Source: a bacterium (GTDB taxonomy: Bacteria; Babelota; Babeliae; Babelales; RVW-14). From it: 32,000 nt of DNA. The stretch spans positions 33,613-65,612 of the forward strand of contig CP064957.1 in assembly GCA_016699045.1 (NCBI GenBank). The letters run 5' to 3'. Made by a program: the position numbers and the translations under genes. Position 1 is the first letter of the stretch, and every line of letters begins with the position of its first letter. The notes under the pieces are model-generated. The model was not told where the DNA came from. It was given only the letters and a program-made list of their open reading frames with translations, and made no database searches. Below are positions 4,646 to 20,037 of the stretch, piece after piece.

Positions 4646-5599
4646 TTATTTAGCAATAGGCAGCGTTGGACAATCATTGAAAAAGCTGCGAAGCCACGAT
4701 ACGCATTCAGGGCTTACTGCTTTTGCTTCAAGGCGTGCTAGTTCGGCAAGTCTGGCTGCTTCTGCTGCTGCTGCTTTAGCTGCTGCCTCGGCTGCAAGTC
4801 TTGCAGCTTCCGTTGCCGCTTCGGCTGCTTTTCTTCCAGCTTCTGCGCGGGCTTTGGCGGCCAGTGCGTCTGAAAGGCTGCTTGGGATTGCTCCCGCGGT
4901 CAAAAAGTTGATCACTTCTTTATAGTCAGCTATGCCGTTGCCATTTAAATCAAATGGATTAATGCCGAAATAATAATAAGCAACTGTAGCTGCTGCTGCT
5001 AGCGTACCGACCCCGGCAACAGCCGCGCCCTTGCGGGAAAAAACTGTTGAGGCCCAGCTTTTAGCAGAAACGGGGTTGGCTGGGTTGTCTGCAGTAAGAT
5101 TGGCGGTAAAATGGTTGGCCAGGCTTGCTACAACATTGGCAGGTGCCGATTCAGCAAAGTGTTTACCAGCGGGCGTTTCTTGCTTTATGGTTTGTATTTC
5201 TTCTTGCTTGATTGGTGGGATTATTTGGTGGTTGGCAAAGTTTGTCTTAAGATAATTTTTGAGCGCTTTGCGAGCTGCTAGGTTTTGGGAGATGCTATTA
5301 ATAAGCTGTATTTCTATGCTGTTTTTTACGTGTTCAAAGCTTGCTTGGTCGTTGCAGGCATGTAATGCCATATCAATAAAAGCTTGTGTTTGTTCAATCA
5401 TCGCTGCTTGGGTTGCTGCATCAGCGTTGGCATTAGCGTTAAAAGCTTCTTGATAGCAAAGAGCTATATTGAATGCGTTATGTTGCGTGACCGGGACCGT
5501 GCTCAGTGTTTTAAAAGATTTTGGCAATGCGGCACCAAGGGCCTGGCTAGCGAACATGAGTGCGCATGCAAAAGCTATGCTTTTATGAATAAAGTTCAT
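4646..5599 (-). CDS. Secreted protein, paralog of 6490..7917, with one EF-hand-like loop, an Ala-rich helix and a C-x11-C tail
   Basis: Signal peptide MNFIHKSIAFACALMFASQALGA with a GGAGGT ribosome-binding site. Other elements are the loop DLNGNGIADYKE, an Ala/Glu/Lys/Arg-rich segment, and the C-terminal CVSWLRSFFNDCP, which matches CVSWIRSWFNDCP in the paralog. Confidence 0.85.
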   Translation of the reverse strand: MNFIHKSIAFACALMFASQALGAALPKSFKTLSTVPVTQHNAFNIALCYQEAFNANANADAATQAAMIEQTQAFIDMALHACNDQASFEHVKNSIEIQLINSISQNLAARKALKNYLKTNFANHQIIPPIKQEEIQTIKQETPAGKHFAESAPANVVASLANHFTANLTADNPANPVSAKSWASTVFSRKGAAVAGVGTLAAAATVAYYYFGINPFDLNGNGIADYKEVINFLTAGAIPSSLSDALAAKARAEAGRKAAEAATEAARLAAEAAAKAAAAEAARLAELARLEAKAVSPECVSWLRSFFNDCPTLPIAK

Positions 5600-5756: not shown

Positions 5757-6059
5757 TTATGAGTGCTTGATTTTGGCTTTTTTCTCGTTTGAGAGCCTTA
5801 TGAGCTCATCCCAATCCCGGGCAATTAAAGCTTCTTTTTTCCTTCTGGTCCAGCCTTTGATTTTTCGTTCCGCAGCAAGAGCTTCATCGCGCGTAACAAA
5901 GTCTTGTACAAAAACAACCTCGATTGGCAAGCGAGTGCTGGTATAACCTTTGGTTAGGCCAAAACGATGTTCGGAAATTCTTTTTTCAATATCATCTGTA
6001 TGGCCGGTGTAGTAAGATCCGTCGCTACATTTGAGGATGTAAACATAAAATGGAAGCAT
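5757..6059 (-). CDS. GIY-YIG nuclease family protein (small UPF0213-like)
   Basis: The sequence MLPFYVYILKCSDGSYYTGHTDDIEKRISEH...ERKIKGWTRRKKEALI carries the GIY-YIG signature (YVY...YTG...R...E). I place the start at ATG 6059, because the ORF-track extension to 6200 is translated repeat DNA. Confidence 0.85.
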   Translation of the reverse strand: MLPFYVYILKCSDGSYYTGHTDDIEKRISEHRFGLTKGYTSTRLPIEVVFVQDFVTRDEALAAERKIKGWTRRKKEALIARDWDELIRLSNEKKAKIKHS

Positions 6060-6115
6060 AGTATTTTTTTTATACCAATAAGATACGAATTTATTTTTCT
6101 TATTACTAATAGTAA

Positions 6116-6233
6116 CCGTTCGTCCTGAGCTTGTCGAAGGATTTGAACGGTTTCCTTTGTGCTTGGTGTGCGAGCATATTCGTCCTTTGTCCTTCGACAA
6201 GCTCAGGACATACGGACTCAGAGCGAATGGCGG
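6116..6233. repeat. Type A GC-rich palindromic repeat, inverted pair
   Basis: CCGTTCGTCCTGAGCTTGTCGAAGGATTTGAACGG (6116-6150) faces TCCTTCGACAAGCTCAGGACATACGG...CTCAGAGCGAATGG (6190-6233). The same 12-mer core, CGACAAGCTCAG, recurs at 17389, 17524 (rc), 23681, 24179 and 24290 (rc). Confidence 0.85.
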
Positions 6234-6489: not shown

Positions 6490-7917
6490 TTATTTTTGAA
6501 CTGGACAGTCGTTGAACCAGCTGCGAATCCATGATACGCATCCAGCGCTATTTGCTTTTTCACGAGCTGCTTGTTCAAGAGCTGCTATTCTTGCAAGTTC
6601 TTCTTGACGAGCTGCTTCTGCTGCTTTTTCACGAGCTGCTTTTGCATGTGCGTCTGCACGACTTGTTGGAAGTGATCCTTTGCCAAGTTCATACATAACT
6701 GCTTCTTTTGCTGCCACTGCAGCGTCTTTAATTTCGGTAACATCAGCTACGCCGTTGCCGTTAAGGTCTGCGTTAGCAAGTGTGTTGTACGCGCTGTTGT
6801 ATCCTGCAACCAACGTGCTGTACGCGCTGTTGTAAGCGTTATCAGCAGCTTCTTTTGCTGCTACAGCAGCATCTTTAATTTCGGTAACGTCAGCTACGCC
6901 GTTGTCGTTAAGGTCTGCGTTAGCAAGTGTGCTGTACGCGCTGTTGTATCCTGCAACTAAAGTGCTGTATGCGCTGTTGTAAGCATTATCAGCAGCTTCT
7001 TTAACATCGGTAATATCCGCTACGCCGTTGCCGTTAAGGTCTGTGTTAAAGTCTGTATTAATCAAAGCATTGTACGCTTCATCGATATCTGATACGCCGT
7101 TGCCGTTTGTATCAAGGTTAAGGATGCGAGCGCCGCCATCAAGCGCGTAAACTGTTGCGCCAACGATACCAGTGCCAAGCGCGATTGCTCCATATTTACC
7201 TAATTCTTGAGCGATTACTTGAGCTTTAACTTGAGTTGCTATGTCTTGTTTTACTGCAACTTGATCTTGAATTTGAGCTGCTACGTCTGTTGGTTTTACT
7301 ACTGGATCAACAACAACAGGAGTTTCCACGTTTGTTGTTGAAGTAAAGTTGTCTACCAAAGGAATGAATTGCAACAAGTTGGTGCTTGGTGTTGCAGGAG
7401 TTACTGCAACTCCTTCTTCGTCGATTTCTACTATTTCAACATTGTTTGGTTTAATAACGTCATCAACGTTGACTGCTGCTTGCTTGTTGCGTTCGATTTC
7501 CAATGCTGCTTGTCTTTCTTCTGCAACTGTTGCAAAAGTTGGATATTGAGCATCAAGAAGTGCTTTGATTTCTTGCGCTGCCGTAGCATCATTGAAGTGA
7601 GATCTGATAGTGCCAGCAATGAAAATATCAATGGTGATATTTTTCAAGCGTGCAAAGCTATGATCGTCTGTTGCTGTCAAAAGAAGTTTACGAGAAAAAT
7701 CTTGTGCATTTTCAATGATGAGTTTTTTTGTATCAGAATCAGCGCTTTTATGAGCAATTATTGCTTTCTGATACATACTTGCCGTTGCTGTGGCATTCTG
7801 GTTTGTTACATTACTTGCAGCAACTAATGAGATGTCTTCAGGCAAGGTTGCGCCAAAAACTTGGCCAGTGAACATGATGGCGAAAGCAAAAGCTGCCGCT
7901 TTAAGGGTGAGTTTCAT
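6490..7917 (-). CDS. Secreted repeat protein with four EF-hand/dockerin-like Ca-binding loops and a C-x11-C tail
   Basis: I place the start at ATG 7917 (MKLTLKAAAFAFAIMFTGQVFGA), preceded by GGAGGT. The four loops are DTNGNGVSDIDE, DLNGNGVADITD, DLNDNGVADVTE and DLNGNGVADVTE. The C-terminus is CVSWIRSWFNDCPVQK. It is paralogous to 4646..5599 at both the N- and C-termini. Confidence 0.87.
   Translation of the reverse strand: MKLTLKAAAFAFAIMFTGQVFGATLPEDISLVAASNVTNQNATATASMYQKAIIAHKSADSDTKKLIIENAQDFSRKLLLTATDDHSFARLKNITIDIFIAGTIRSHFNDATAAQEIKALLDAQYPTFATVAEERQAALEIERNKQAAVNVDDVIKPNNVEIVEIDEEGVAVTPATPSTNLLQFIPLVDNFTSTTNVETPVVVDPVVKPTDVAAQIQDQVAVKQDIATQVKAQVIAQELGKYGAIALGTGIVGATVYALDGGARILNLDTNGNGVSDIDEAYNALINTDFNTDLNGNGVADITDVKEAADNAYNSAYSTLVAGYNSAYSTLANADLNDNGVADVTEIKDAAVAAKEAADNAYNSAYSTLVAGYNSAYNTLANADLNGNGVADVTEIKDAAVAAKEAVMYELGKGSLPTSRADAHAKAAREKAAEAARQEELARIAALEQAAREKANSAGCVSWIRSWFNDCPVQK
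6701..6994. repeat. Tandem duplication, 2 x 147 nt (49 aa), inside the 6490..7917 CDS
   Basis: Hand alignment of the two copies (6701-6847 and 6848-6994) shows about 11 mismatches in 147 nt. A partial third copy follows up to about 7043. Confidence 0.9.
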
Positions 7918-8000
7918 AATAAATACCTCCAAAAAAAATGAGAATAATAACCTCACAAATGAACTATAACCTCCAAAATGGCTCCATAACCATTTCCATC

Positions 8001-8293: not shown

Positions 8294-9130
8294 ATGAAAC
8301 AAAGTATTTTTTTGGTAGCTGGCCGCCTGGCAAGTAGGATCTTTTTTAGATTTTCTTGTGCTTTCATAATAGCTTTGCTCAGCTTTGCTCAGCTTTGCTC
8401 AGCTCAACAGCCACTCATCCCTCATGACCCCAATTTTTTGTCGTTGCCTAATAATGCGCGAACTGAGATCATTTCTCGCGAGCCTTTGATCATCTTGATC
8501 AATAATTTTATTACCGATGATGAGGCCAAAGCGCTCAAACAAGCAGCTCAACCTTTGCTCAAGAAATCGCTTGTTGTTGATGGTGAAAAGATTGATATTG
8601 AACATCCTGATAGAACATCAAGCTCGGCGTTTCTTACTATTGACTCATCCTCATCGCTTGCCTTGCCTATTACCAAGCGAGCAACTGATTTTCTGCGCAC
8701 TACGACAACACACGCCGAAGGGCTTCAAGTTGTCCACTACAAAAATCATCAGCGTTATGATACACATTTCGATTATTTTGATCGAACCCAGCCAAGCGGA
8801 CGAGCAGCAATTGGCGCCCGTGGTCAACGGGTTGCAACCGTTTTGGTTTACCTCAACGACGTGCAACCTGATTCTGGGGGTGAAACATTTTTCCCCAAAA
8901 TTGGCGAGGGGCTTAAGGTTCGGCCTCAAAAAAATATGGCTGTTTTTTGGTATAACGTTCTGCCCTCAGGGCTGGAAGATGGAAGAACGTTGCACGCTGG
9001 TCTTCCGATAACTGGCGGTGAAAAATATGCACTTAATATTTGGATTCGAGACCCTCGTCTTGTTAATCAGGTAAATGAAACCCCGACCTCGCTATTAGTG
9101 GCTGCAAACAACGAGCAAGCTGATAAATAA
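8294..9130 (+). CDS. Prolyl 4-hydroxylase-like 2OG-Fe(II) oxygenase with an N-terminal signal peptide
   Basis: Signal or TM segment FRFSCAFIIALLSFAQLCSA. Catalytic-type motifs are YKNHQRYDTHFDYF (H-x-D), GGETFFP, and RTLHAGLPITGGEKYALNIWIR (distal His plus a basic residue). Confidence 0.85.
   Translation: MKQSIFLVAGRLASRIFFRFSCAFIIALLSFAQLCSAQQPLIPHDPNFLSLPNNARTEIISREPLIILINNFITDDEAKALKQAAQPLLKKSLVVDGEKIDIEHPDRTSSSAFLTIDSSSSLALPITKRATDFLRTTTTHAEGLQVVHYKNHQRYDTHFDYFDRTQPSGRAAIGARGQRVATVLVYLNDVQPDSGGETFFPKIGEGLKVRPQKNMAVFWYNVLPSGLEDGRTLHAGLPITGGEKYALNIWIRDPRLVNQVNETPTSLLVAANNEQADK
8371..8404. repeat. Decanucleotide tandem repeat (AGCTTTGCTC x 3.4) in the signal-peptide coding region
   Basis: Perfect copies lie at 8371-8380, 8381-8390 and 8391-8400, followed by a partial AGCT. 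The unit length is not a multiple of 3. Confidence 0.9.
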
Positions 9131-9183
9131 GCAAAAGAACTGTAGATTCTATAAATGCAGCAATGATTGTCTTGCATGCAAAG

Positions 9184-9220
9184 AGCCCCCGGCCCTGCCT
9201 GGTCGGCAAGATCGGGGGCT
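9184..9220. terminator. GC-rich hairpin between convergent genes
   Basis: AGCCCCCG (9184-9191) pairs with CGGGGGCT (9213-9220). There is no clear T-run, so termination function is uncertain. Confidence 0.35.
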
Positions 9221-9247
9221 AGTTCGGATTGATAGTTTAACGTTGTG

Positions 9248-9580
9248 TTACTTGGCGGCGTTTGCAAGTGCATCAAATGCACCAGCGTCCATGTTTAGCT
9301 CAGCTTGTGCGGTTATTTTGAGTAGTGAGGCTATTTTAGGTGCTAATGGTACGTTTACTTTATTATTGTAATGGGCTCCAAGTATTGCTTCAACTGTTGA
9401 TGCTGTGTCAGGCTGTAGTTCGTTAATTAGGTTTTGTATAGATTGGATTGATTTCAATACGCCAAGCTGTGCCCGGGCAATATCTTTTGCAGGGACGCTG
9501 GCCGCTGCTGAGATCGAATTACTAAAAACAACCGAACAAGCAATTATTACACCAACGAAGATTGCTTTGATTTTTTTCAT
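9248..9580 (-). CDS. Small secreted protein (hypothetical)
   Basis: 110 aa with signal peptide MKKIKAIFVGVIIACSVVFSNSISAAA and an AAGGAA ribosome-binding site. It begins 15 nt downstream of the stop of the (PA)n gene, so the two are probably co-transcribed. Confidence 0.75.
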   Translation of the reverse strand: MKKIKAIFVGVIIACSVVFSNSISAAASVPAKDIARAQLGVLKSIQSIQNLINELQPDTASTVEAILGAHYNNKVNVPLAPKIASLLKITAQAELNMDAGAFDALANAAK

Positions 9581-9595
9581 ATTTATTCCTTATTA

Positions 9596-10654
9596 TTAAG
9601 CTGTAATTACGTTCCATGCGGTATCAAGTTTGGTATCTGCGGGATTTGTTAACTGATTATAAATTGCCTGTTCTAGCAAGAAGAGCTTTCTTATTTGTGC
9701 AGCGTCTAGCGCTTTGAAGATAGCCTTGTTATCAGATGATATTGTTCCAAAATTATCGGCAGTTCCAAATTTTATAAAATTTTTGCTGAAATCATCTGGA
9801 CTAACAAACCAAGTTTTTAATGCATATTGTGCTGAAGGTTCGCCTATAATCAGGGTTGCAAGTACGCCATTGTAAGCCAGTTCTCTCTCCGCGTCTGATA
9901 CGCTTGCATCAGCATAGATTTCATTCACTTTAGCCCAGAACTGGTCAGCTGTTCCCGTGCCAGCTCCGAGTACTGCGCTTGGCGTTGTTGATGGTGTTGT
10001 TGCTGGTGCTGGTGCTGGTGCTGGTGCTGGTGGGGTTGCTGGTGCTGGTGCTGGTGCTGGTGTTGCTGGTGCTGGTGCTGGTGCTGGTGCTGGTGCTGGT
10101 GCTGGTGCTGGTGCTGGTGCTGGTGCTGGTGCTGGTGCTGGTGCTGGTGCTGGTGCTGGTGCTGGTGCTGGTGCTGGTGCTGGTGGTGGTGCTGGTGCTG
10201 GTGGGGTTGCTGGTGCTGGTGCTGGTGCTGGTGCTGGTGCTGGTGGGGTTGCTTTTACTTTATTAACGTATTTTGCAAGTTTTTGTGCGTCGTTTGGATG
10301 CTGGGATTTGAGGGCTTGAGGCATTTGCTCATCATAAAATATAGCGTTTATAAGAAGTTTGAATTGAGGCTCTAGTAAAGAATTTTTCTTAACCATTTGG
10401 TGTGCCTTTTTAACGTCGTTGGCTATAGCTTTTGCAAGCGCTGCATTATTAATATGCAAAAAGGTTAAGGCTTTGGTTGCATGATGTTTGATTGTAGGAT
10501 TTTTGCCGTTTGCAAAATCATCAGCATACTTTGGTGCTAATCTTTTGTACTCTGCGATATTTTTATACGGTTGAGTGGTAGCCTGGATGGCAAGGCCTGT
10601 GGTGGCTACCAGGAAGATTCCCAGCAACGACTTTATACGATTGTGTGCTTTCAT
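9596..10654 (-). CDS. Secreted protein with a long (Pro-Ala)n low-complexity linker
   Basis: Signal peptide MKAHNRIKSLLGIFLVATTGLAIQA with a GAGGAG ribosome-binding site. A central run of about 80 aa consists almost entirely of PA dipeptides with occasional T or PP, flanked by ordinary N- and C-terminal domains. Confidence 0.85.
   Translation of the reverse strand: MKAHNRIKSLLGIFLVATTGLAIQATTQPYKNIAEYKRLAPKYADDFANGKNPTIKHHATKALTFLHINNAALAKAIANDVKKAHQMVKKNSLLEPQFKLLINAIFYDEQMPQALKSQHPNDAQKLAKYVNKVKATPPAPAPAPAPAPATPPAPAPPPAPAPAPAPAPAPAPAPAPAPAPAPAPAPAPAPAPAPAPATPAPAPAPATPPAPAPAPAPATTPSTTPSAVLGAGTGTADQFWAKVNEIYADASVSDAERELAYNGVLATLIIGEPSAQYALKTWFVSPDDFSKNFIKFGTADNFGTISSDNKAIFKALDAAQIRKLFLLEQAIYNQLTNPADTKLDTAWNVITA
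10001..10250. repeat. Hexanucleotide microsatellite (GCTGGT)n on the + strand, equal to (CCAGCA)n on the coding strand
   Basis: About 250 nt of the 6-nt unit. The perfect run spans roughly 10065-10186, with variant units (GGGGTT, GTTGCT, GGTGGT) on either side. Confidence 0.95.
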
Positions 10655-10710: not shown

Positions 10711-10754
10711 TTTCTATGTGTCAATTTTAATTATAAAAAGCTGACACATAGAAA
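10711..10754 (-). terminator. Perfect 13-bp inverted repeat downstream of the 10765..12246 gene (terminator or operator)
   Basis: TTTCTATGTGTCA (10711-10723) and TGACACATAGAAA (10742-10754) are separated by 18 nt. On the - strand the hairpin is followed by ATTTGTTTAGTTTT. The distal arm also contains TTGACA upstream of the next gene. Confidence 0.45.
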
Positions 10755-10764
10755 GTCAATAATT

Positions 10765-12246
10765 TTAGAATGAAAAACCTGCTTTACCCCAAACGGCATA
10801 TTGTTCGACCGAGGAATTTTTAGGCGCAAATTCATAATAACCGCCAACGCCTATCGATGTTGGATAGCAGTCATTGATCTTGCATTTGTACGCAACACCT
10901 GCCGACAATTTATGAGTAATTTGTGATGGGGTTTTGGCGGCATCAACGTCAAGGTTGTCTGCAGTAAAGAATTCATCGCCAATCACAGCAAACCGATCAA
11001 CTGCGCTCTCTGAGTCTTGTCCTGGTTTAACAATACCAACTTGGCCGATCAAATCGTCAGTGTTTTTGACCCAGAGCGATTCTTGGTCTTTCCAGTACAA
11101 GTTGTAGCCAATTTCAACCACACAATGCTTGTTTTGGAATGAAAGGTTGAGTAATGCATCGATTTGGCTGTTTGGTTGGACGCGCATGTCGCGGGTCAAA
11201 ACGTTGGCAAGAGGGAAAAATGGCTTATTAACTTGGCCATTGCGAGCACCAAGGTAGTAGTGGCTCAATGGTTCTGAGTTGCCATCGGTAACGTTTTTAA
11301 GCCCGATGGTACGTGTTTCGGTGCCTTCAAACAAATATGAGTAGTTTAAGCAGCCGTCAACGCGTAATTTGCCTTGTTCGCCAGACCATACTTGTGCGCC
11401 GGCATAGATGTTGGCGCCAAGGCCTACATGGTGGCCGTTGCCATAAACTGGTTCAAAAAGATAGGTACCGCGTACTTTTGAGCCGGTTGGGATGGTAACA
11501 AATACTGAAACGAAAGCATGCGCTGTATCAGATTGGAAGTATTTGTAACCAAGTGCCAGGTCAAGGTCAGCAATTCCTGTTTTGCTACGGTCGCCGTCAA
11601 TTTTGCCAAAAGCAAGTGGGACTTGTTGGTTTAGCTCGCCAGTTGTTACGTTAACGTTACCAGCAAAAAAGTCTGCCAGGTCGTAGCTATCGTTGGTTTC
11701 GCTTTCAACAAGGACTTCATTGCCATCATTAATAGTCATTTCCATGTCGGTTTCAACATGAATGATGGGCATGCTTGCTTTGAAAAACAAGTTTTTGATT
11801 GGGGCATTGATATCTTGAATGTAGTCCAAACGGAAACCAAATACTTCGCGTTCTGGATTGAACGTAACATTGCCTCTAACAAATTGTGTGCTTTCGCCTC
11901 CGATGGCATGAATCAAATGGCTGCCGTCTATTTCAACACCATCTGTTGCTGGGTTGCCAACCGCAAAGCCGTTAGTGCCATTACCAAAACCAAAGTAAGC
12001 ACCAAGATCGTCATCGTTGGTCGATGCTTGCCAAAAACCAGTTATTTGAACGTGGCTGTTGATGCCATGCTTTTCTTTGTGTTGTTTGAAAAAGTGTGAA
12101 TGCCAAGTTGTCCATTCCATAGCGCTGTCAACGTTGGTTGGTCGTGGCATTAAAAATGTTTTACCTGAATATTGGCGGTCGTTGTCGGCATACAAGCTGC
12201 CGACGCACAATGCTAAAAGTGCGAGTATGCGAAGATGTATTTTCAT
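10765..12246 (-). CDS. Outer-membrane beta-barrel protein (porin-like), paralog 1
   Basis: Signal peptide MKIHLRILALLALCVGSLYA with a GGAGAAGGA ribosome-binding site. The C-terminus ends ...WGKAGFSF, with the terminal Phe typical of OMPs. Blocks shared with 18490..20037 and 21031..22602 include FL-x-PR, TGIADLDL, VTIPTG, GNGHH, LNYSYLFEGTE-RT-GLK and TPSQ. Confidence 0.8.
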   Translation of the reverse strand: MKIHLRILALLALCVGSLYADNDRQYSGKTFLMPRPTNVDSAMEWTTWHSHFFKQHKEKHGINSHVQITGFWQASTNDDDLGAYFGFGNGTNGFAVGNPATDGVEIDGSHLIHAIGGESTQFVRGNVTFNPEREVFGFRLDYIQDINAPIKNLFFKASMPIIHVETDMEMTINDGNEVLVESETNDSYDLADFFAGNVNVTTGELNQQVPLAFGKIDGDRSKTGIADLDLALGYKYFQSDTAHAFVSVFVTIPTGSKVRGTYLFEPVYGNGHHVGLGANIYAGAQVWSGEQGKLRVDGCLNYSYLFEGTETRTIGLKNVTDGNSEPLSHYYLGARNGQVNKPFFPLANVLTRDMRVQPNSQIDALLNLSFQNKHCVVEIGYNLYWKDQESLWVKNTDDLIGQVGIVKPGQDSESAVDRFAVIGDEFFTADNLDVDAAKTPSQITHKLSAGVAYKCKINDCYPTSIGVGGYYEFAPKNSSVEQYAVWGKAGFSF

Positions 12247-12628: not shown

Positions 12629-12934
12629 ATGGAAATTATGAATTATCAAGATATAGAGCCATACCGAAAAGATCTTATAAAAATTATCTTCCACTATTTC
12701 CCATCGTGCCAAATATATCTTTTTGGATCACGAGCAACGCAAACTAATAACCCACATTCAGATATTGATTTGGCGATTGATTGTGGCCGCGTGGTGCCAT
12801 TGCACGATCTTTCTGCTTTGATTGAGGCCATTGACGGACTTAATATTCCGTTTTACGTTGATATTGTTGATGTACGTAATACATCGCCGGTAATGGTTGA
12901 GCAAATTAATAAATGTGGGATTTTATGGAAATAA
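12629..12934 (+). CDS. Minimal nucleotidyltransferase (MNT, HI0073-like antitoxin component), pair 1
   Basis: The sequence IYLFGSRATQTNNPHSDIDLAID carries the G-S...D-x-D polymerase-beta-fold NTase motif, and VDIVDV supplies the third acidic residue. About 100 aa, overlapping the partner gene. Confidence 0.85.
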   Translation: MEIMNYQDIEPYRKDLIKIIFHYFPSCQIYLFGSRATQTNNPHSDIDLAIDCGRVVPLHDLSALIEAIDGLNIPFYVDIVDVRNTSPVMVEQINKCGILWK

Positions 12935-13362
12935 TGACAGGAATTGAAAAATTAATTATTAAACAAACAACAACCTTACAAGCGTTGGCAAGACTTAAAG
13001 AAGAATTAGAAACTTTAAGTAAGCTTGATAATAGTTCATCTGGTGATCAAAAATTAATACGTACCTATCGTAATTCTGTAACCAAACTTTTTGAAATTTC
13101 ATTCGATCTCTTTTGGAAATATGTTAAAGAATACCTTTGGGGCATGCACGGCATTGATCAACAATCTCCCAAAAATGTATTTCGCGAATGTTTTAAGCTT
13201 GACTTTGTCAGTCAGGCAGAAACAACTCAGCTCTTAACGATGGTTGATGAACGCAATAAGTTGGTTCATACCTACAATGAAGAAGTGGCAATTCTTATCT
13301 CGTACAACATTCCTCAGTATTATAACTTGATGAATCAGTTGCTTGATGCTATGAAAGTTTAA
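12934..13362 (+). CDS. HI0074-like NTase substrate-binding / HEPN-type protein (putative toxin component), pair 1
   Basis: R-x4-H motif in DERNKLVHTY, and homology to 20498..20926. ATG 12934 overlaps the upstream TAA as TAATG; in-frame upstream ATGs at 12913 and 12925 are alternative starts. Confidence 0.8.
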   Translation: MTGIEKLIIKQTTTLQALARLKEELETLSKLDNSSSGDQKLIRTYRNSVTKLFEISFDLFWKYVKEYLWGMHGIDQQSPKNVFRECFKLDFVSQAETTQLLTMVDERNKLVHTYNEEVAILISYNIPQYYNLMNQLLDAMKV

Positions 13363-13426: not shown

Positions 13427-13816
13427 TTATGTTTTGATAAACCCACCAATTCCTTGCGCGGTAATTTTGTCTGCCAACGGAAATGTTGCATGATGCGGAT
13501 GTACCACATACAAATGGTCTAGTTTAAGATCTTGTAATGCGATTGTCATGGATGGGGTGTCGGTATATTTAATTTCAAAACCAAGTCGCTTACCATCTTT
13601 TATAATTAAAAGATCAAGTTCAGCACCGCTTTGCGTTGCCCAAAAAAAACATTCTTCAGGTTGTGCATGATACGTTTTGATAATTTCTTCGAGCACAAAA
13701 CCTTCCCACGAAGGGCCAAGCCGCGGGTAAACTTGCAATGCTGCATTGTCATTGATGCCCAAAAGTGCATGCAGCAGGCCGCTGTCGCGCAGATAAATTT
13801 TGGGCGATTTTACTGA
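13427..13816 (-). pseudogene. C-terminal fragment of a DUF4143-type AAA ATPase, 5' truncated
   Basis: KSPKIYLRDSGLLHALLGINDNAALQVYPRLG...FFWATQSGAELDLLIIKDGKRLGFEIK aligns with the C-terminal third of the intact ATPase at 14316..15488 (KSPKLYFYDTGLACWLL...VYFWRDSHGHEVDCLLDYGVDLVPIEIK). The P-loop part is absent, and homology ends at the repeat at 13815. Confidence 0.75.
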
Positions 13817-14095: not shown

Positions 14096-14315
14096 CTTTT
14101 TTGGCAACAACTCCGTAGGCCTTTTTATGATTTGTCCTTGTAAATTGTCATTTCAATTTAAAAATTACAAGGATGGTGGGCAGTTGGAGTTTGTTGTTGA
14201 TGCAGTTAAAGCCTCTTTGGGACGTGTTTTTAAGCAGGGTTGTGTAATTATGTAAGTCGGGTTATAGTTTTACACAGGTAGCTTTAAGATGGTCTCTGGT
14301 GCTGAAAGGAAAAGT

Positions 14316-15488
14316 ATGTTTATCGAAAGAACCTTGAAGCCGGTGTTGCTTCACTACGCCTCAAAATTTGCTGTTGTTGCCGTTGTTGGTCCGCGGCAGT
14401 CTGGAAAAACGACGTTAACCAAAGAGGTGTTTGCCAATTATCGTTACTTCTCTTTGGAAGATCCCGATACGCTAGAAGCGGTGCGTAGCGATCCGCGCGG
14501 TTTTTTGGAACGTGATTATGGCACGCCTGGCATGATTATCGACGAATTTCAAAATGAACCGACTTTGTTGTCGTACATGCAAGGCATTGTGGACAGTAAC
14601 TATCGGCCTGGTTATTTTATTTTGACCGGTTCCCAAAACTTTTTGATGAACGAAGCGATTACGCAATCGTTGGCCGGTCGCGTTGCGTTACTCACGCTTT
14701 TACCCTTAACAGCTAACGAATTGCAGCAAAGTGCTTTGTTGCCAGAGCAGGTTGATGTCGCCATTTTTAATGGTGGCTATCCAAATATCTTTTCGCGTGG
14801 CATGAGTCCGAGTGAATTTTATCCGCAGTATACAAAAACGTATGTTGAGCGCGATGTTCGGCAGTTAGTGAATGTTGCAAAGCTGAGTGAGTTTCAACGC
14901 TTTATGCGGCTGTGCGCTGGCCGCATCGGGCAAATTTTTAATGCTTCGTCCTTGGCTGATGATTGCAATGTGAGTGTGCCAACAATCAATTCCTGGGTTT
15001 CAATTCTTGAAGCTAGCTATGTTTTATTTTTATTGCAGCCGCATTTTAAAAATTTTAGCAAGCGTCTCATTAAGTCGCCCAAACTTTATTTTTACGATAC
15101 CGGGCTTGCATGCTGGCTGTTAAAAATTGGTTCAGTTGAGCAGTTGCATGATCATTATTTGCGTGGCGGATTAATGGAATCGTTTGTGGTGGCAGAATTG
15201 TATAAAACATTTTACAACAAAGGCCTTGAGCCAACGGTTTATTTTTGGCGTGATAGCCATGGCCATGAAGTTGATTGTTTATTAGATTATGGTGTTGATC
15301 TGGTACCGATTGAGATTAAATCTGGGGCAACGGTTAATCAACGGTTTTTTGATAATCTTACATTTTGGCACACGCTTGCCGGCACTGATCGGTCGCAGGG
15401 CTATGTTGTTTATGCTGGTACTGAAAAGCATGAGCGCAGTTTCGGGACGGTAGTGAGTTGGCAGGATGTTAGTAGTATGGTGCGATAG
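14316..15488 (+). CDS. AAA ATPase with a DUF4143-type C-terminal domain
   Basis: Walker A motif GPRQSGKTTL, Walker B-like MIIDEFQ, and a C-terminal restriction-endonuclease-like block FWRDSHGHEVDCLL...IEIKSG. I place the start at ATG 14316 (MFIERTLK), after AAAGGAAAAG. Confidence 0.85.
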   Translation: MFIERTLKPVLLHYASKFAVVAVVGPRQSGKTTLTKEVFANYRYFSLEDPDTLEAVRSDPRGFLERDYGTPGMIIDEFQNEPTLLSYMQGIVDSNYRPGYFILTGSQNFLMNEAITQSLAGRVALLTLLPLTANELQQSALLPEQVDVAIFNGGYPNIFSRGMSPSEFYPQYTKTYVERDVRQLVNVAKLSEFQRFMRLCAGRIGQIFNASSLADDCNVSVPTINSWVSILEASYVLFLLQPHFKNFSKRLIKSPKLYFYDTGLACWLLKIGSVEQLHDHYLRGGLMESFVVAELYKTFYNKGLEPTVYFWRDSHGHEVDCLLDYGVDLVPIEIKSGATVNQRFFDNLTFWHTLAGTDRSQGYVVYAGTEKHERSFGTVVSWQDVSSMVR

Positions 15489-15547: not shown

Positions 15548-17224
15548 TTAGTTAGATGCTTTTCGTCCTGGAGGTAAGCCTTGGTCAGTTCTTCTGCGTG
15601 AAGGTGCGGCTGGCTGTTCAGGAGCTGCGGCTGCTGGTTGCTCGGTTGTGGTGCCTTGATCTGGTGACGATGCTTGAGCTTGTTGAGCAGCTACTGCGGC
15701 ATTGTATTCTGCGAGTTGTTTATTATACTCAGCCATTTTTTGTTGATAATCAGCTTCAGCGGCGGCGGCAGCATCTGTAGCAGCTTGGTCTGTTGTTGTG
15801 GCTGCAGGTTGGGCTGCGGCTGCTGGTTGCTCGGTTGTGGTGCCTTGATCTGGTGACGATGCTTGAGCTTGTTGAGCAGCTACTGCGGCATTGTATTCTG
15901 CGAGTTGTTTATTATATTCGGCCATTTTTTGTTGATAATCAGCTTCAGCGGCGGCGGCAGCATCTGCAGCGGCTTGGTCTGTTGTTGCGGCTGCAGGTTG
16001 GGCGATTAGCGTTGCTTCGTCTAGTGCCATTTGTTGTTCGACCGCGGCTTGTTCTGCTGGTTCGGTAATGACTATTCTTTTTGTAGAGATTTTTGATGGG
16101 ACAATGCCGGTATTTTTTGGTGCTGCATCGGTTGTTTCATCGATCGCTTGATCATCGGCGCTTGCTTGGTCATCTGGTACTATTTGAGCTTTTTTGGCTA
16201 CCGCGTCTTGGTGCTTCTTTCTTTTTCCAGGTTTACCTTTTATTTTTTTGCCTGCTTGTTTATGAGGTTTTCTGGCTGGATATTTTTTTGAACTGATCAC
16301 TTTTTGTTTGCCACCGTGTTTTGGTTTAACGCCTTGTTTTGCGCGTGCATGGTCGGCAAGTGTTTTCTTTTCTTCAGGCGTTAATTTTTTAGGGTCTTTG
16401 AGCAATAATGCCTTGATGGCTTTTTTATCAGCCTTTTTTTGTTCTAAGCGCTCAAGCATTGCCGTTTCTTGTTCCGTCAACGTGGTGCCGGCAGCTTTTT
16501 TTGCTTGAAGATCTTTAAGATATTGGTCGGCGATCATATTTTTTTCTACGCGCTCGCGCTCGCGTTCAATTTTGCTTTGTATGTTGCCGCCTTTTATTTT
16601 AGCGCGTGGCTGTTGAAGCTTAGCGCGTGGATGTTGGAGTCTTTTTTTGACGTGGTGTTTTTTTTGCTTATGCCCACCCTTGCCGCCGCCTTGGCGTCTG
16701 TTTTTGCGATTCATTATTTCTTGCATGATATGGTCGTTTGCTGCAAGTTTTTGCATTTTGTTTTTTTTGTTTTTTTTCAAAAATTTTGGACGTCTTTTTT
16801 GTTTGCTTTTACCACGAGCGATACGTTTTTTATGACGTCCGCCAACGCGTCTTTTGTGTGTTTTGCGTCCGACATTTGGTCTGCGTTGTCGGCGTTGTTC
16901 TGGTGCTTTTTGTTCTTCTTCTTTTGCTTGAGCAACGGTGCGATTAATTTCTTTGCGCAAAAGTTTAAGAAAGCGAGCAGGGATGGCGCCAGGGATTGCA
17001 TGAACTTTTTGTTTTGGCTGAACAACTTGCACTGTGGCATGGGTTTTTTTAGCTTTATGTCCTTTTTTTCCAGGCGCATGTTTTTTGGAGCCTTTTTTTT
17101 GATGCGGTGCTTTTGTAGGCAACGTATCGGCGGCTGTCCACGCCGTAGCAGGATTTAACAAAAGTAAGAGGGTGAGTAGATGCAAGGCGCGTAAGGCAGA
17201 GGGTCGTTTTATGGAACGTGACAT
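15548..17224 (-). CDS. Secreted, extremely Lys/Arg/His-rich protein with an Ala/Gln-rich tandem-repeat C-terminus
   Basis: I place the start at ATG 17224 (MSRSIKRPSALRALHLLTLLLLLNPATAWTA), with AAGGAG 6 nt upstream. Basic tracts include KKGSKKHAPGKKGHKAKKTH and RRQRRPNVGRKTHKRRVGGRHKKRIARGKSKQKRRPKFLKKNKKNK. The C-terminal part contains two 63-aa repeats. Confidence 0.85.
   Translation of the reverse strand: MSRSIKRPSALRALHLLTLLLLLNPATAWTAADTLPTKAPHQKKGSKKHAPGKKGHKAKKTHATVQVVQPKQKVHAIPGAIPARFLKLLRKEINRTVAQAKEEEQKAPEQRRQRRPNVGRKTHKRRVGGRHKKRIARGKSKQKRRPKFLKKNKKNKMQKLAANDHIMQEIMNRKNRRQGGGKGGHKQKKHHVKKRLQHPRAKLQQPRAKIKGGNIQSKIERERERVEKNMIADQYLKDLQAKKAAGTTLTEQETAMLERLEQKKADKKAIKALLLKDPKKLTPEEKKTLADHARAKQGVKPKHGGKQKVISSKKYPARKPHKQAGKKIKGKPGKRKKHQDAVAKKAQIVPDDQASADDQAIDETTDAAPKNTGIVPSKISTKRIVITEPAEQAAVEQQMALDEATLIAQPAAATTDQAAADAAAAAEADYQQKMAEYNKQLAEYNAAVAAQQAQASSPDQGTTTEQPAAAAQPAATTTDQAATDAAAAAEADYQQKMAEYNKQLAEYNAAVAAQQAQASSPDQGTTTEQPAAAAPEQPAAPSRRRTDQGLPPGRKASN
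15623..16000. repeat. Tandem duplication, 2 x 189 nt (63 aa), inside the 15548..17224 CDS
   Basis: By eye, copies 15623-15811 and 15812-16000 differ at only about 5 positions. Confidence 0.9.
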
Positions 17225-17374
17225 CGTGTCTCCTTCGATTAGGATTTTTTCAAAAACTACGTTAATCAAGACCCTAGCATGTGGCTAATTTGAAATGGAA
17301 GTATTTTGAAAAATGGGAAAAAAGAGCACTAAAAAAAGCCGATCAGTGAATTATGTTTTTAGTACTTTAAGGTG

Positions 17375-17644: not shown

Positions 17645-18055
17645 TTACTTTTCGAAAAGAGGTAAGTTATTTTTCGGCAAAGCCGTAACTTTTTTTTCAA
17701 CAAAATTTAAAATCTTGTTGGCCATGCTAATTGCTTGTTTAATGTCTTCTTGATCTACAAAAAAACGGTCGTCAGGATAGCGCGAATAAACGCCATACGG
17801 ATTTAAAAAAAGTGCTTCGTTTTCAAGGGTTTTAAACGATGAATCTGCTTGAGCACATTCTTCTAAAATTTTTTCGAGATCATGACTTTTTAAAACAGGT
17901 TTTTTGCAAAAAACTAAATATGTTTTGAGTGCTTTTTCGGCACATTGATGTGCAAGATAAACAGTAACGTCTCCTACCTCTTCATTGCTCGATGACATTT
18001 TTGCAACTATTAAATCGTTTGAGGCTTTTCTCAGCCAGTCTTTAATTCCTGGCAT
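17645..18055 (-). CDS. HEPN domain protein (putative toxin of an MNT-HEPN pair), pair 2
   Basis: The sequence reads ...AHQCAEKALKTYL...KSHDLEKIL...YSRYPDD, which is classical HEPN-domain-like. Its ATG overlaps the upstream NTase gene by 14 nt. Confidence 0.75.
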   Translation of the reverse strand: MPGIKDWLRKASNDLIVAKMSSSNEEVGDVTVYLAHQCAEKALKTYLVFCKKPVLKSHDLEKILEECAQADSSFKTLENEALFLNPYGVYSRYPDDRFFVDQEDIKQAISMANKILNFVEKKVTALPKNNLPLFEK

Positions 18056-18362
18056 AAATTACCTTCCCTTTATTTTTAACTTGGTAAGGCAGCGTTGTGT
18101 AGTCAGACGTTCGTGCATCAAATTCTTCTTGCGTGTATACCAATAAATCTTTAGATATACTTAAACCCCATAATGCCTTCATACCGGCAAACGCTCGATG
18201 TTGCGGGCGTTCATTTGAAGATTCTACAATTACCAATAAATCTAAATCGCTATCGTCGTGAGGGGTGCCCCACGCATAAGAACCAAAAAGATAAATAGTT
18301 GTAGGTTGGTAAACAGCAACCAGTCTGTTTTTTACTTCTTCAATAACTTCTGGGCTAATCAT
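18042..18362 (-). CDS. Nucleotidyltransferase domain protein (MNT antitoxin component), pair 2
   Basis: IYLFGSYAWGTPHDDSDLDLLVIV carries the G-S...D-x-D motif. I place the start at ATG 18362 (MISPEVIEEV), because the ORF-track extension to 18518 runs through the terminator repeat. Confidence 0.82.
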   Translation of the reverse strand: MISPEVIEEVKNRLVAVYQPTTIYLFGSYAWGTPHDDSDLDLLVIVESSNERPQHRAFAGMKALWGLSISKDLLVYTQEEFDARTSDYTTLPYQVKNKGKVIYARN

Positions 18363-18434
18363 GGTTTTATCCTTTTCTGGCGCTTTAAAGACGTTTTTGT
18401 CAGTGTAAATAAAATGGTACGAATTGGCAAATAA

Positions 18435-18467
18435 CAAAAAAGCCGATCTGGATGACCGGCTTTTTTT
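18435..18467 (-). terminator. Rho-independent terminator of the 18490..20037 gene, second copy of the 67-nt repeat
   Basis: On the - strand, AGCCGGTC-atccagat-CGGCT is followed by TTTTTTGTT. Confidence 0.7.
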
Positions 18468-18489
18468 AAACGAGAGAGCGTGAATTTTT

Positions 18490-20037
18490 TTAGAATGCAA
18501 GACCAGCTTTGCCACCAATTTCCCAGTTGCTCAGTGCTGCATTGTCTGAAGCCCATTCATAATGCGTGTGGAAGCCAACCAAAAGTGGTACTTGGAACGT
18601 TTGCGATTGATATGAAACGCCGGCATAAATTTTGTTGCTCAATTGCGATGGCGTTTCTGCAGTTTGGGTGGTGATGTTGCTATCGACAAGTGGCACTTGC
18701 AGTTCACCAACAGAAATTCCTGAGCCGCTTGCGGTAGCACTTGGCGTTACAATGCCCCATTTGTTTGCGGTTGTACCAAAAATTGGTGTATTTTTTTTGC
18801 GATCAACATCTTCTTGATCGCGGTAGTACAGGTTGTAGCCAAGATCGATAGTAAAACCGCGGTTGTGGTAGGCAAAAGCAAGAATCATGTCGAGCTGGCT
18901 GCCGGGAGTGACATCGCAATCAACCGTCAATTTATTAGCGGCAGGAATCAAAATTGTGGCTGCGCCAGTAACTTGACCAACAAGTGCATAATGGCCCCAA
19001 GGAATTATGCTGCCATCGGTATTTTTTAAACCGAGCGTTCTTTGTTCAGTGCTTTGAAATAGATAGCGATAGTTTAGGGCGCCGTGAAATGAGAAGTTGT
19101 GTTGGTTGTGTTGCCACATGATGGCGCCGCCATCAAGGCCGGCACCAAAACCCCAGTGAGTGCCATTGCCAACGATTGCTTGAAAAAGTTTTTCGCTTTT
19201 TACATCATCGCCAGTTGGGATAGTAACGCCCACGTTGACGGCCAAGCGATAGTTTTCGTGGTACAAGCAGTAGTAACCAAGCATGAATTCGATGTCGGCG
19301 ATGCCGCTTGAACTATCATCGTTATTCGTTTTACCAAATTTTAAAAACTGCAGAGCAGCTTGCGCATTGGTAGCGTCGTTGTTGGCGCCGGTGCCATCAA
19401 AATAATTTTTCAAAGCGTTGGTAACTGATGTTGCAACAACGGCAGCTGTGCCAATGTTGATGGTTGCCGCATTGTACACTTCGGTAAAGTTGGCATTAAT
19501 ATTATTTTCAACATTAACAATTGGTACGTTGAGTGAGAAATAAAGACCATTCAGCGCTTTGTCTAAATTTTGGTGATGATTGAGCGTGATGCCGTACGCA
19601 CGTTGTTGTGGGTTGAGGGAAAGTTGTACAAGCTCGGTTGGTGTGCCGCTGGCAATGCCTGCGGAGTAGTGTACAAAGTGGCGGTAGTTTAAGGTTTGTG
19701 CGGTAACCGGGGCGTTGCCGCTATTTGAGCCAAAGTTGAAATTATTTTCTTTAAGTTGGTTTGTTGGTGGGTTGGTTGCTGGTGCAAAATATTCGCCCGC
19801 CTCATCTTTGTCTGTTGATGCCTGATAATAACCAATTACTTGCAAGCAACCGTTGTAACCCTTGTTTGTGCCTTCTCGATGCATTAAGTTTTGCCAGCCG
19901 TTTACATTTTCAAGCGCCAAATTAACGCCGTGTGATCGTGGATTTAAAAATGTTTTATTGTGCGCATCGTCTGCGTGCACGTGCGCTATGGCTGCCAGTG
20001 CGGCGATGATAAGACTTTTTTGTATGACGTTCTTCAT
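18490..20037 (-). CDS. Outer-membrane beta-barrel protein (porin-like), paralog 2
   Basis: Signal peptide MKNVIQKSLIIAALAAIAHVHA with a GGAGAG ribosome-binding site. The C-terminus is ...GGKAGLAF. It is strongly similar to 21031..22602 along its whole length. Confidence 0.82.
   Translation of the reverse strand: MKNVIQKSLIIAALAAIAHVHADDAHNKTFLNPRSHGVNLALENVNGWQNLMHREGTNKGYNGCLQVIGYYQASTDKDEAGEYFAPATNPPTNQLKENNFNFGSNSGNAPVTAQTLNYRHFVHYSAGIASGTPTELVQLSLNPQQRAYGITLNHHQNLDKALNGLYFSLNVPIVNVENNINANFTEVYNAATINIGTAAVVATSVTNALKNYFDGTGANNDATNAQAALQFLKFGKTNNDDSSSGIADIEFMLGYYCLYHENYRLAVNVGVTIPTGDDVKSEKLFQAIVGNGTHWGFGAGLDGGAIMWQHNQHNFSFHGALNYRYLFQSTEQRTLGLKNTDGSIIPWGHYALVGQVTGAATILIPAANKLTVDCDVTPGSQLDMILAFAYHNRGFTIDLGYNLYYRDQEDVDRKKNTPIFGTTANKWGIVTPSATASGSGISVGELQVPLVDSNITTQTAETPSQLSNKIYAGVSYQSQTFQVPLLVGFHTHYEWASDNAALSNWEIGGKAGLAF

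Follow-up and report, generated by a model that had tools for sequence, protein, structure and literature searches.

A predicted exported prolyl 4-hydroxylase of uncultured bacteria, encoded near a young Pro-Ala repeat protein

The bacterial DNA analysed here (the window, 32,000 nucleotides) encodes a peptidyl prolyl 4-hydroxylase (P4H) and, two genes away on the opposite strand, a protein with a central Pro-Ala tract (the PA protein). The reading we favour, with a probability of roughly 0.55, is that the P4H is an old exported enzyme for Pro-rich envelope segments, that the tract was made by slippage, and that the adjacency of the two genes is specific to the genome of the window. The enzyme most likely modifies exported Pro-rich proteins generally, with the Pro-Ala tract at most an opportunistic substrate.

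The P4H gene (8294..9130, plus strand) encodes 278 amino acids of the P4Hc/PF13640 type, and PF13640 was the sole match of the ORF in a Pfam scan (E = 9.7e-16). The closest solved structures, as found by phmmer against the PDB, are the enzymes of Bacillus anthracis (3itq/5hv0, 3e-31), Chlamydomonas (2jig, 3.5e-25), human C-P4H (7zsc, 7.8e-24) and PBCV-1 (5c5t, 2.2e-14). The AlphaFold model (pLDDT 91.3) is folded as a double-stranded beta-helix of the 2OG-oxygenase kind and lies nearest to P4Hs, which make up the top 34 Foldseek matches throughout (3gze, 2jig, 5hv0, 7zsc, 6tp5, 5c5t). Its best match and superposition is 3gze_A (E = 2.8e-21, TM 0.82 normalised to target, 32% identity), an algal enzyme with bound (Ser-Pro)5.

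The catalytic residues are Y149, Y155, H158, D160, T182, H234 and K244. The iron triad H158-x-D160...H234 is invariant in a 64-sequence alignment, as are K244, ten residues past H234, Y149 and T182; Y155 (RYDTH158, three residues ahead of the first His) is kept in at least 90% of 12 sequences. Following PMC9676403, the residues map to Tyr134, Tyr140, His143, Asp145 and Lys237 of Chlamydomonas P4H-1 (Cr-P4H), where Tyr140 in the betaI-betaII loop touches the substrate proline, and to Tyr421, Thr467 and Lys511 of C-P4H-II, Lys511 being the 2-oxoglutarate-binding lysine and the other two the conserved Tyr and Thr. The Pfam family, the PDB relatives and the invariant residues all agree with the H-x-D...H...K arrangement of P4H type given in the preliminary description. 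Sequence and model together identify the product as a collagen/plant/viral-type peptidyl P4H with a complete set of catalytic residues and predicted activity.

Other oxygenase assignments were rejected. PHD2, Dictyostelium PhyA and P. putida PPHD, representing the HIF-PHD and Pseudomonas PPHD types, matched the model only at Foldseek E ~1e-10 with 17–20% identity, and PHD-type enzymes were missing among the phmmer PDB matches at E <= 0.01. A free L-proline hydroxylase is disfavoured by PF13640 as the only Pfam match and by PDB matches that include no free-proline enzyme. A non-prolyl hydroxylase is ruled out by the phmmer and Foldseek relatives; profile and structure searches group the oxygenase with peptidyl P4Hs of the collagen/plant/viral type, so the non-prolyl grouping that the preliminary description had named as a refutation did not turn up.

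Residues 1–37 of the P4H (8294..8404, plus strand) form a putative export signal or signal anchor. The N-terminus, MKQSIFLVAGRLASRIFFRFSCAFIIALLSFAQLCSA followed by QQP, combines a basic n-region with a hydrophobic core, whose Kyte-Doolittle maximum over 10 residues is 2.75, and with a small-x-small site, putative cleavage falling between CSA and QQ; residues 2–36 are a helix in the AlphaFold model. The signal peptide of the earlier description is thus retained, as judged from hydrophobicity and the modelled N-terminal helix rather than by a dedicated predictor. An export-type segment is present in every P4H of the clade described below, whereas Bacillales and other P4Hs are without one. The P4H is apparently exported, or anchored with its catalytic domain outside the cytoplasm. 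Outside the cytoplasm, a periplasmic 2OG oxygenase would need a supply of both Fe(II) and 2-oxoglutarate, a demand that we counted against an exported role, and a literature search on exported or periplasmic bacterial P4Hs found nothing relevant. The signal-peptide coding part of the gene also contains a 10-bp tandem repeat, AGCTTTGCTC (8371..8404, plus strand, 3.4 copies, TRF 100% matches, score 68), and adding or losing a single copy of it would put the P4H out of frame.

The PA protein gene (9596..10654, minus strand, 352 aa) has an SD sequence, GAGGAG, ahead of its ATG and encodes a signal peptide, a helical N-domain of ~110 aa, the Pro-Ala tract and a C-domain of ~120 aa. The protein is apparently exported by crude, hydrophobicity-type criteria. 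Second in the operon is a 110-aa gene (9248..9580, minus strand) whose predicted exported product is possibly a lipoprotein (VIIAC; KD10 = 3.04). An operon converging on the P4H gene had been described, and the convergence stands; direct adjacency of the PA gene does not, the 110-aa gene being the immediate neighbour and the PA gene two away. Between the convergent P4H gene and PA operon lies a G+C-rich, terminator-like hairpin (9184..9220), followed on the minus strand by CTCTTTGC; the interval 9131–9250 folds at -41.6 kcal/mol (z = -3.0 versus shuffles).

The promoter-like site 5' of the PA gene, TTGACT-18-TATAAT (10730..10759, minus strand), matches 11 of 12 consensus positions and had the top score in the scanned region, a consensus match only. 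An OMP-like protein of 493 aa, with a signal peptide and the C-terminus ...GKAGFSF, is encoded 5' of the operon (10765..12246, minus strand) and has two further paralogs in the window. The region is dense in exported proteins, and inference from neighbourhood is therefore weakened in both directions. Searches for tRNAs and Rfam families gave no match.

The Pro-Ala tract occupies residues ~137–218 of the PA protein, in good agreement with the ~80 central residues of PAPAPA first described for this signal-peptide protein. Its ~82 residues comprise 43 Pro, 38 Ala and few Thr, the protein has 38 Pro-Ala dipeptides, and the tract is well beyond chance. At the DNA level it is a (CCAGCA)n hexanucleotide microsatellite (9992..10245, minus strand; TRF period 6, 42.8 copies, 90% matches) in which Pro is written CCA in all 43 cases and Ala GCA in all 38, with a longest perfect run of 20 units. 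CCA makes up 43% of Pro codons and GCA 34% of Ala codons in the remaining window genes. A single codon serves each residue, the perfect run is 20 units long, and the tract is missing from both known homologs, one of which comes from a very close relative. We therefore take it to be young, a recent and strain-specific product of DNA slippage. An off-frame artefact was considered and rejected: the opposite-strand ORFs 9957–10319 and 9979–10266 are mirror images of the repeat, without the start context, signal peptide or conserved flanking domains of the minus-strand ORF.

The PA protein family is small, hypervariable and fast-evolving. An exhaustive HMMER search of 1.84 billion representatives found only two homologs, P0177 and P0178, while a word-indexed search with the protein minus its tract gave no match among 5.8 billion proteins, and neither Pfam nor NCBIfam has a family for it. 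Neither the homologs nor the Pro-rich neighbours described below had any match in Pfam or the PDB. The signal peptide and N-domain are 65% identical to P0177, and both homologs have a ~300-residue Ala/Thr/Lys-rich domain at the position of the tract, P0178 showing only KATTPPLPPRGG at the junction. The P0178 locus (L094) derives from a very close relative; its flanking OMP fragment, upstream of P0178, is identical at 56 of 57 residues to the C-terminus of the window's OMP-like protein. The product 3' of the PA-family gene in L094 is 34% identical to the 110-aa protein (E = 7e-09), so the two-gene PA operon is conserved. The contigs of PA homologs (L094–L096, ~2 kb) end 33–38 bp past the small downstream gene, before any P4H position. 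The AlphaFold model of the PA protein, built from three sequences, shows no more than helical ends (pLDDT 40).

The P4H has a different history. Its tight clade, bacterial throughout and drawn from metagenomes only, has ten members at 45–62% identity and an NJ bootstrap of 100. The gene is old and conserved within what is a small group of uncultured Gram-negatives. Outside this clade the NJ bootstraps are below 30, the deep nodes leading to it included; the Bacillales P4Hs fall in a separate group in this tree, which neither supports nor contradicts a eukaryotic or viral origin. A scan of GTDB genomes with the clade profile matched only a Burkholderiaceae MAG at 40% identity, hence there was no complete clade genome for co-occurrence counts. 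The metagenome scan added one clade member, L010; the remaining 79 loci were marine sequences with 28–39% identity, mostly of high GC, and were left out of the statistics because raw ORF scanning gives spurious Pro-rich frames at high GC.

Orthologs of the P4H occupy at least six other gene contexts: between SSB and LpxB (L001, L002 and L007), between an epimerase and MutL (L003–L006), and in L008, L010 (with GyrA), L090 (with an ankyrin gene) and L091. BLAST found no gene in common with the window at these loci except the P4H; none of the contexts has a PA-family gene nearby, and the P4H-PA adjacency is not conserved in any. Ankyrin-repeat proteins are encoded on relatives' contigs, and these, together with the 1.45-Mb contig, hint at a host-associated lifestyle.

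Pro-rich neighbours unrelated to the PA protein occur at two of these loci. The gene diverging from the P4H in L010 encodes a repeat protein of >400 aa, 31% of it Pro, with a membrane or signal anchor, and the convergent one in L008 encodes a protein that has a signal peptide and a KPEPTPKQEPAPQLPAEP...PKPEPAKK hinge. Exported Pro-rich proteins thus flank the P4H in 3 of 7 contexts, counting the window, and across these loci just three genes reach 10 or more Pro within a span of 30 residues, each of them no more than two genes from the P4H. Such genes are scarce in the window itself (1 of 26 other genes). The association is statistically weak, with hypergeometric p ~0.03 including the window and ~0.17 without it, on short contigs and at a threshold set post hoc; the P4H-PA adjacency in the window's genome could still be functional.

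On our preferred reading, the exported P4H would use Fe(II), 2-oxoglutarate and O2 to convert Pro to 4-Hyp, a role we infer, where exported envelope proteins have Pro-rich segments extended in the manner of polyproline II. The PA operon, downstream of a conserved OMP gene, would encode a fast-evolving exported protein in which CCAGCA slippage in the window's strain replaced the relatives' ~300-residue domain with a Pro-Ala spacer of ~82 residues, roughly 25 nm long if drawn out completely in the polyproline II form (~3.1 A per residue). The two genes would not be a co-evolved module, nor would the tract explain the enzyme's existence. The tract may be hydroxylated opportunistically, because the two products are predicted to share a compartment and related P4Hs accept Pro-Ala.

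The preliminary description had instead proposed a dedicated pair, in which the P4H exists for its (Pro-Ala)n neighbour and turns it into a surface linker that would be rich in hydroxyproline, possibly glycosylated and similar to extensins or AGPs, and that was suggested as a possible mimic of host surface proteins. The convergent genes two apart, the apparent export of both products, the scarcity of Pro-rich genes in the window and the algal (Ser-Pro)5 enzyme as best structural match are in its favour, and the biochemistry then cited agrees with published work: PBCV-1 P4H hydroxylates Pro-Ala-Pro-Lys repeats and prefers Pro ahead of Ala (PMC3634087), and (Ala-Pro)n in tobacco becomes (Ala-Hyp)n with arabinogalactan (Tan et al. 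2004, as cited in PMC4132260). Yet the P4H is old and kept in at least six other contexts, none syntenic and none with a PA-family gene nearby, whereas the tract is a recent microsatellite expansion missing in both homologs, one from a near-identical relative, and Pfam found no glycosyltransferase among the window ORFs scanned. Because the tract is recent and missing in relatives and the adjacency is not conserved, a dedicated pair is unproven, and we consider it unlikely. We consider it more improbable still that the PA gene is a degenerating or non-functional allele with neither a substrate nor a spacer role, its central domain deleted and the gap filled by a runaway repeat. The missing ~300-residue domain, the uninformative model and the absence of the exact PA product from the protein collection, where other window proteins are found, would fit such decay, but the ORF is intact and in frame through the 254 bp repeat, conservation in the signal peptide and N-domain is good, the SD is strong and accompanied by a promoter-like site, and the downstream partner gene is retained.

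Alternatively, the two genes may be unrelated neighbours, with the tract an unmodified semi-rigid spacer and the P4H acting on another envelope protein, on a host protein once the enzyme is secreted, or on an EF-Tu-like target. The unconserved adjacency and the slippage origin of the tract are consistent with this, and an exported neighbour is expected by default because the region is packed with exported proteins. Furthermore, modification of EF-Tu is reported, in the title of PDB entry 5v7y, for the B. anthracis P4H, whose structure is among the closest ones solved, and the relatives' ankyrin-repeat proteins hint at host association, where secreted effectors are common. A cytoplasmic target such as EF-Tu, however, fits poorly with the export signal of the P4H, Pro-rich exported proteins are again its neighbours in L010 and L008, and P4Hs of the P4Hc type accept a broad range of Pro-rich peptides of polyproline-II form (PMC3634087, PMC9676403), so that zero modification would need explaining if enzyme and tract share a compartment. 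We regard this alternative as possible but doubtful.

A broader, tentative reading, to which we give limited credence, is that a clade of uncultured, probably protist-associated Gram-negatives uses an exported P4H, possibly of eukaryotic or giant-virus ancestry, for hydroxyproline-rich envelope or surface proteins, a bacterial counterpart of plant and algal HRGPs in which new Pro-rich substrate genes repeatedly arise or settle beside the P4H. Its substrates would include the (Pro-Ala)~41 protein, the L010 protein with its >400-residue Pro/Ala/Val/Thr repeat and the L008 Pro-rich hinge protein. Bacterial P4Hs are uncommon, as first noted: by 2018 only two peptidyl enzymes were on record (PMC6219649). 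What these act on in nature is debated, and post-translational hydroxyproline is barely documented in bacteria. Hydroxylation of (PA)n or PT/PV repeats by the P4H would establish hydroxyproline-rich envelope proteins in bacteria and provide a bacterial, disulfide-free, monomeric P4H for producing hydroxylated Pro-rich polymers; if there is no hydroxylation, the locus is a P4H homolog beside a slippage-generated spacer.

Among known systems, Chlamydomonas reinhardtii P4H-1 (2jig, 3gze) and the plant type-1 enzymes share with the window P4H a monomeric catalytic domain of ~220 residues with the DSBH fold, the iron-, 2OG- and substrate-contacting residues, and an N-terminal signal or anchor to a non-cytoplasmic compartment, predicted in our case; a signal anchor of plant type 1 P4Hs is mentioned in PMC11275109. 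By analogy, the substrates may likewise be non-collagen Pro-rich polyproline-II segments. The window enzyme differs in its bacterial host and in lacking the Cys195-Cys230 disulfide of Cr-P4H, because the mature protein has no cysteines. Unlike in the plant and algal systems, Hyp-glycosylation machinery was not seen nearby: Pfam detected no glycosyltransferase domain in the scanned window ORFs, many of which have no Pfam match at all. The B. anthracis P4H (3itq, 5hv0, 5v7y), the best solved sequence match (E = 3e-31), is also a bacterial single-domain peptidyl P4H; Bacillales enzymes, reported active on collagen-like peptides and EF-Tu (PMC6219649; title of PDB 5v7y), differ in being without an N-terminal export signal.

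PBCV-1 P4H is of the same family (phmmer E = 2.2e-14, Foldseek 1.1e-14), although less identical than the algal or Bacillus enzymes. A relative with 40% identity, P0010, is encoded on a giant-virus-like contig, and in the viral-looking L027 a P4H is flanked by APTPAPTTR-repeat genes, paralleling the arrangement of an enzyme beside Pro-rich proteins. In contrast to chloroviruses, the window is bacterial chromosome with FabF, FtsK, MurC and BacA.

TonB, the OmpA hinge and E2 lipoyl-domain linkers are Ala-Pro or X-Pro rigid spacers of bacterial proteins. The PA protein resembles them in having two folded ends joined by a long tract in which Pro alternates with X and which should be stiff and extended, but its ~82 residues of nearly pure Pro-Ala are far longer and more uniform, of near-perfect microsatellite origin and not kept in its own family. 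The repeat also lacks the conservation in its family that would match extensin and AGP substrates, although the protein is like them in being of exported type and in its repetitive Pro-X motifs of the kind that P4Hs accept.

The oxygenase encoded at 8294–9130 (+, 278 aa) has a single Pfam match, PF13640 (E = 9.7e-16), and all of its matches to PDB sequences at E ≤ 0.01 are prolyl 4-hydroxylases (P4Hs), namely B. anthracis P4H (3e-31), Chlamydomonas P4H-1 (3.5e-25), the human C-P4H alpha-2 catalytic domain (7.8e-24), PBCV-1 P4H (2.2e-14) and P4H-TM. Six residues, Y149, H158, D160, T182, H234 and K244, are invariant in an alignment of 64 sequences and map to the Fe(II) triad and the 2OG-binding Tyr, Thr and Lys (PMC9676403). 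A further tyrosine, Y155 (at least 90% conserved in a 12-sequence alignment), is the counterpart of the betaI-betaII-loop Tyr that touches the substrate proline in Cr-P4H (PMC9676403). The AlphaFold model is confident (pLDDT 91.3) and its top Foldseek match is 3gze_A (E = 2.8e-21, TM 0.82 normalised to target), an algal enzyme with bound (Ser-Pro)5; PHD-type enzymes scored no better than ~1e-10, at 17–20% identity. The enzyme thus does not group with non-prolyl hydroxylases, and its best sequence and structure matches, like its residues, are those of a peptidyl P4H, in line with the P4H type given in the preliminary description. By every sequence and structure criterion tested the protein belongs to the P4Hc family, its catalysis being a prediction, and alignment and model together show a predicted active site that is complete and of the type binding extended Pro-rich peptides.

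Basic residues occur at the P4H N-terminus together with a hydrophobic core and a CSA|QQ site; residues 2–36 form one single helix in the AlphaFold model. A comparable N-terminal hydrophobic segment is present in every member of the P4H clade (the window protein and its close orthologs), and none was found in the Bacillales, Vampirovibrio and Nannocystaceae homologs compared. Prediction of the enzyme as exported or signal-anchored is well supported by sequence and model but not proven. Signal-like N-termini are also carried by the PA protein (352 aa, with a Pro-Ala centre), a 110-aa protein and an outer-membrane-protein-like (OMP-like) protein encoded nearby; the signal peptides previously claimed for P4H and PA protein both stand as predicted export-type N-termini. 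A perfect 10-bp tandem repeat, AGCTTTGCTC x3.4 (8371–8404, +), lies within the P4H signal-peptide coding region; as one unit more or fewer would shift the frame, it could serve as a slipped-strand on/off switch. The ortholog N-termini differ from this repeat-bearing one.

The P4H has ten close relatives (45–62% identity), all from metagenome assemblies, plus the ortholog at metagenomic locus L010. In a neighbour-joining tree, which left out L010, the ten database sequences (window P4H and nine relatives) form one clade with 100% bootstrap. Its neighbours in the tree are zoosporic-fungal and algal sequences, sequences from giant-virus contexts and unidentified ones, with the Bacillales and proteobacterial homologs in another part; this deeper placement is tentative, at bootstraps <30. 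No clade genome turned up in a scan across GTDB; many uncharacterised bacterial P4H homologs of 280–310 aa are present in databases. The nearest outgroups (loci L092 and L097) differ in origin: P0010 (40% identity) lies on an NCLDV-like contig with Evr1/Alr, SNF2, TFIIS, kinase and glycosyltransferase genes, and P0071 (38% identity, signal peptide) on a bacterial one that also encodes MreB, DciA, MurG and an ankyrin protein. The P4H family appears to be common to protist-associated microbes.

The interval holds three genes and was correctly described as an oxygenase gene facing a minus-strand operon with the PA gene (9596–10654, −; GAGGAG Shine-Dalgarno). The adjacency claimed for the pair stands, with one adjustment: the PA gene is close to the P4H gene and convergent with it, but the direct convergent neighbour is the 110-aa gene (9248–9580, −), downstream of the PA gene, which lies one position further. 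Between the convergent genes is a G+C-rich hairpin (9184–9220, folding z = −3.0). The region's best promoter consensus match, TTGACT-18-TATAAT (10759–10730, −), falls just upstream of the PA gene, between it and the OMP-like gene (493 aa, 10765–12246, −).

The PA tract (residues ~137–218) contains 43 Pro, 38 Ala and a few Thr, and its DNA is a period-6 repeat of 42.8 copies with a longest perfect run of 20 units. Every Pro is encoded by CCA and every Ala by GCA; in the other window genes these make up 43% of Pro codons and 34% of Ala codons. One codon per residue within a period-6 repeat is a signature of replication slippage and not of codon-by-codon selection. The tract is slippage-generated and strain-specific. 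Outside the tract, the PA protein had no match in a word-indexed search of 5.8 billion proteins, and a search of 1.84 billion representatives gave only two: P0177 (65% identity to its N-domain) and P0178 (41% identity to the N-domain, plus further matched stretches). Both homologs have a ~300-residue Ala/Thr/Lys-rich region precisely at the tract's place (junction sequence KVKATTPPLPPRGG in P0178 versus KVKATPPAPAPAP in the window protein), and this absence of the tract speaks against a conserved repeat resembling those of HRGPs. The P0178 contig (L094) begins with an OMP fragment (positions 1–174), 56/57 identical to the C-terminus of the window OMP (10765–10935), and its last gene is homologous to the 110-aa one (34% identity, E = 7e-09). 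The operon of OMP, variable protein and small protein is thus kept in a very close relative, where the middle gene has diverged strongly and lacks the PA tract. The PA locus is conserved but hypervariable, with a fast-changing gene beside a conserved OMP gene. If fully polyproline II, the tract would form an extended spacer of ~25 nm. The contigs with PA homologs run only 33–38 bp past the small gene, short of any P4H position.

The OMP-like protein is one of three ~500-aa paralogs (10765–12246, 18490–20037 and 21031–22617, all −) that have signal peptides, carry ...GKAG(F/L/V)(S/A)F at the C-terminus and had no Pfam or NCBIfam match; loci L003 and L004, which carry P4H orthologs, have genes weakly similar to them. 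Two further paralogous exported proteins (4646–5599 and 6490–7956, −) share a C-terminal CVSW(L/I)RS(F/W)FNDCP and DxNGNGxxD calcium-loop-like motifs, the second gene containing a 147-bp tandem repeat (6701–7002, 2.1 copies). An extremely Lys/Arg-rich exported protein of 573 aa (15548–17269, −), with a duplicated Ala/Gln-rich C-terminal repeat, had no family match, and its gene coincides with an AT-skew extreme (−0.53). Within 13 kb are three MNT-HEPN (nucleotidyltransferase/HEPN-type) toxin-antitoxin-like pairs and one lone HEPN-like gene (12629–13362, 17645–18518, 20214–20926 and 25135–25578), near a GIY-YIG gene (5757–6200), a DUF4143 ATPase (14289–15488) and a DUF4143 fragment (13427–13762).

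Six other context types were found around the P4H gene of relatives, and the window arrangement, which conserved adjacency of the pair would predict, was not among them. These were SSB/P4H/LpxB (L001, L002, L007), sugar epimerase/P4H/MutL (L003–L006), a Pro-rich hinge protein and then Maf beside P4H (L008), Pro-rich repeat protein/P4H/GyrA (L010), P4H/ankyrin protein/RecT (L090), and P4H followed by four genes without a Pfam match, the first encoding an exported 289-aa protein (L091). In BLAST of all window ORFs against those of L001–L008 only P4H was common, along with weak OMP-family matches, hence the P4H–PA adjacency is not conserved. In L003 (678–2518, +) an NAD-dependent sugar-nucleotide epimerase/dehydratase gene is followed on the same strand, after 36 bp, by the P4H ortholog (47% identity), a neighbourhood that is the only hint of a glycosylation link.

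Pro-richness was scored as the maximum Pro count per 30-residue window in every called gene of the clade loci. Only three genes reached at least 10/30, all no more than two genes from P4H and mutually unrelated: the window PA protein (17/30, position +2), the convergent neighbour in L008 (10/30; signal peptide, E/K coil, KPEPTPKQEPAPQLPAEP...PKPEPAKK hinge and C-domain) and the divergent neighbour in L010 (13/30, 31% Pro overall, >400 aa of APTPAPTPVVVAPKPSPLPVLPTPPAPIVAPVAVP-type repeats after a hydrophobic N-terminus). With syntenic loci counted once (7 contexts, 69 other genes, 22 of them within two positions of P4H), a hypergeometric test on these short contigs, with the ≥10/30 cut-off set after inspecting the data, gave p ~0.03 with the window and p ~0.17 without it, the window having been picked for this feature. 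At this low power the counts merely hint at exported Pro-rich proteins as the class of P4H substrates, and they are not evidence for the window pair itself. An independent parallel is seen at L027 (7716–15303, GC 0.52; also L029), a probable giant-virus contig, where four genes flanking a P4H of 31% identity encode APTPAPTTR or poly-Pro repeat proteins with a common C-terminal domain.

Bacterial peptidyl P4Hs are indeed uncommon among published enzymes, with two reported by 2018 (PMC6219649), and our literature search returned no report of an exported one. Pro-Ala is also a biochemically plausible substrate, as proposed: PBCV-1 P4H hydroxylates (Pro-Ala-Pro-Lys)n and favours Pro before Ala (PMC3634087), and in tobacco (Ala-Pro)n is converted to (Ala-Hyp)n (Tan et al. 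2004, as cited in PMC4132260). Enzyme class, export signals and this plausibility agree with the proposed enzyme–substrate pair, but its dedicated character does not hold, as neither adjacency nor repeat is conserved, and we infer that a conserved P4H cannot have evolved for a young PA tract. The enzyme would hydroxylate exported Pro-rich segments, and the PA tract could be modified opportunistically because it would share a compartment with the enzyme. A tentative reading, to which we give roughly one chance in four, is that members of this clade produce envelope proteins rich in hydroxyproline and that genes for such Pro-rich substrates recur next to the P4H gene. The window P4H would work most like the monomeric P4Hs of algae and plants and, unlike the B. 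anthracis enzyme, it bears an export signal.
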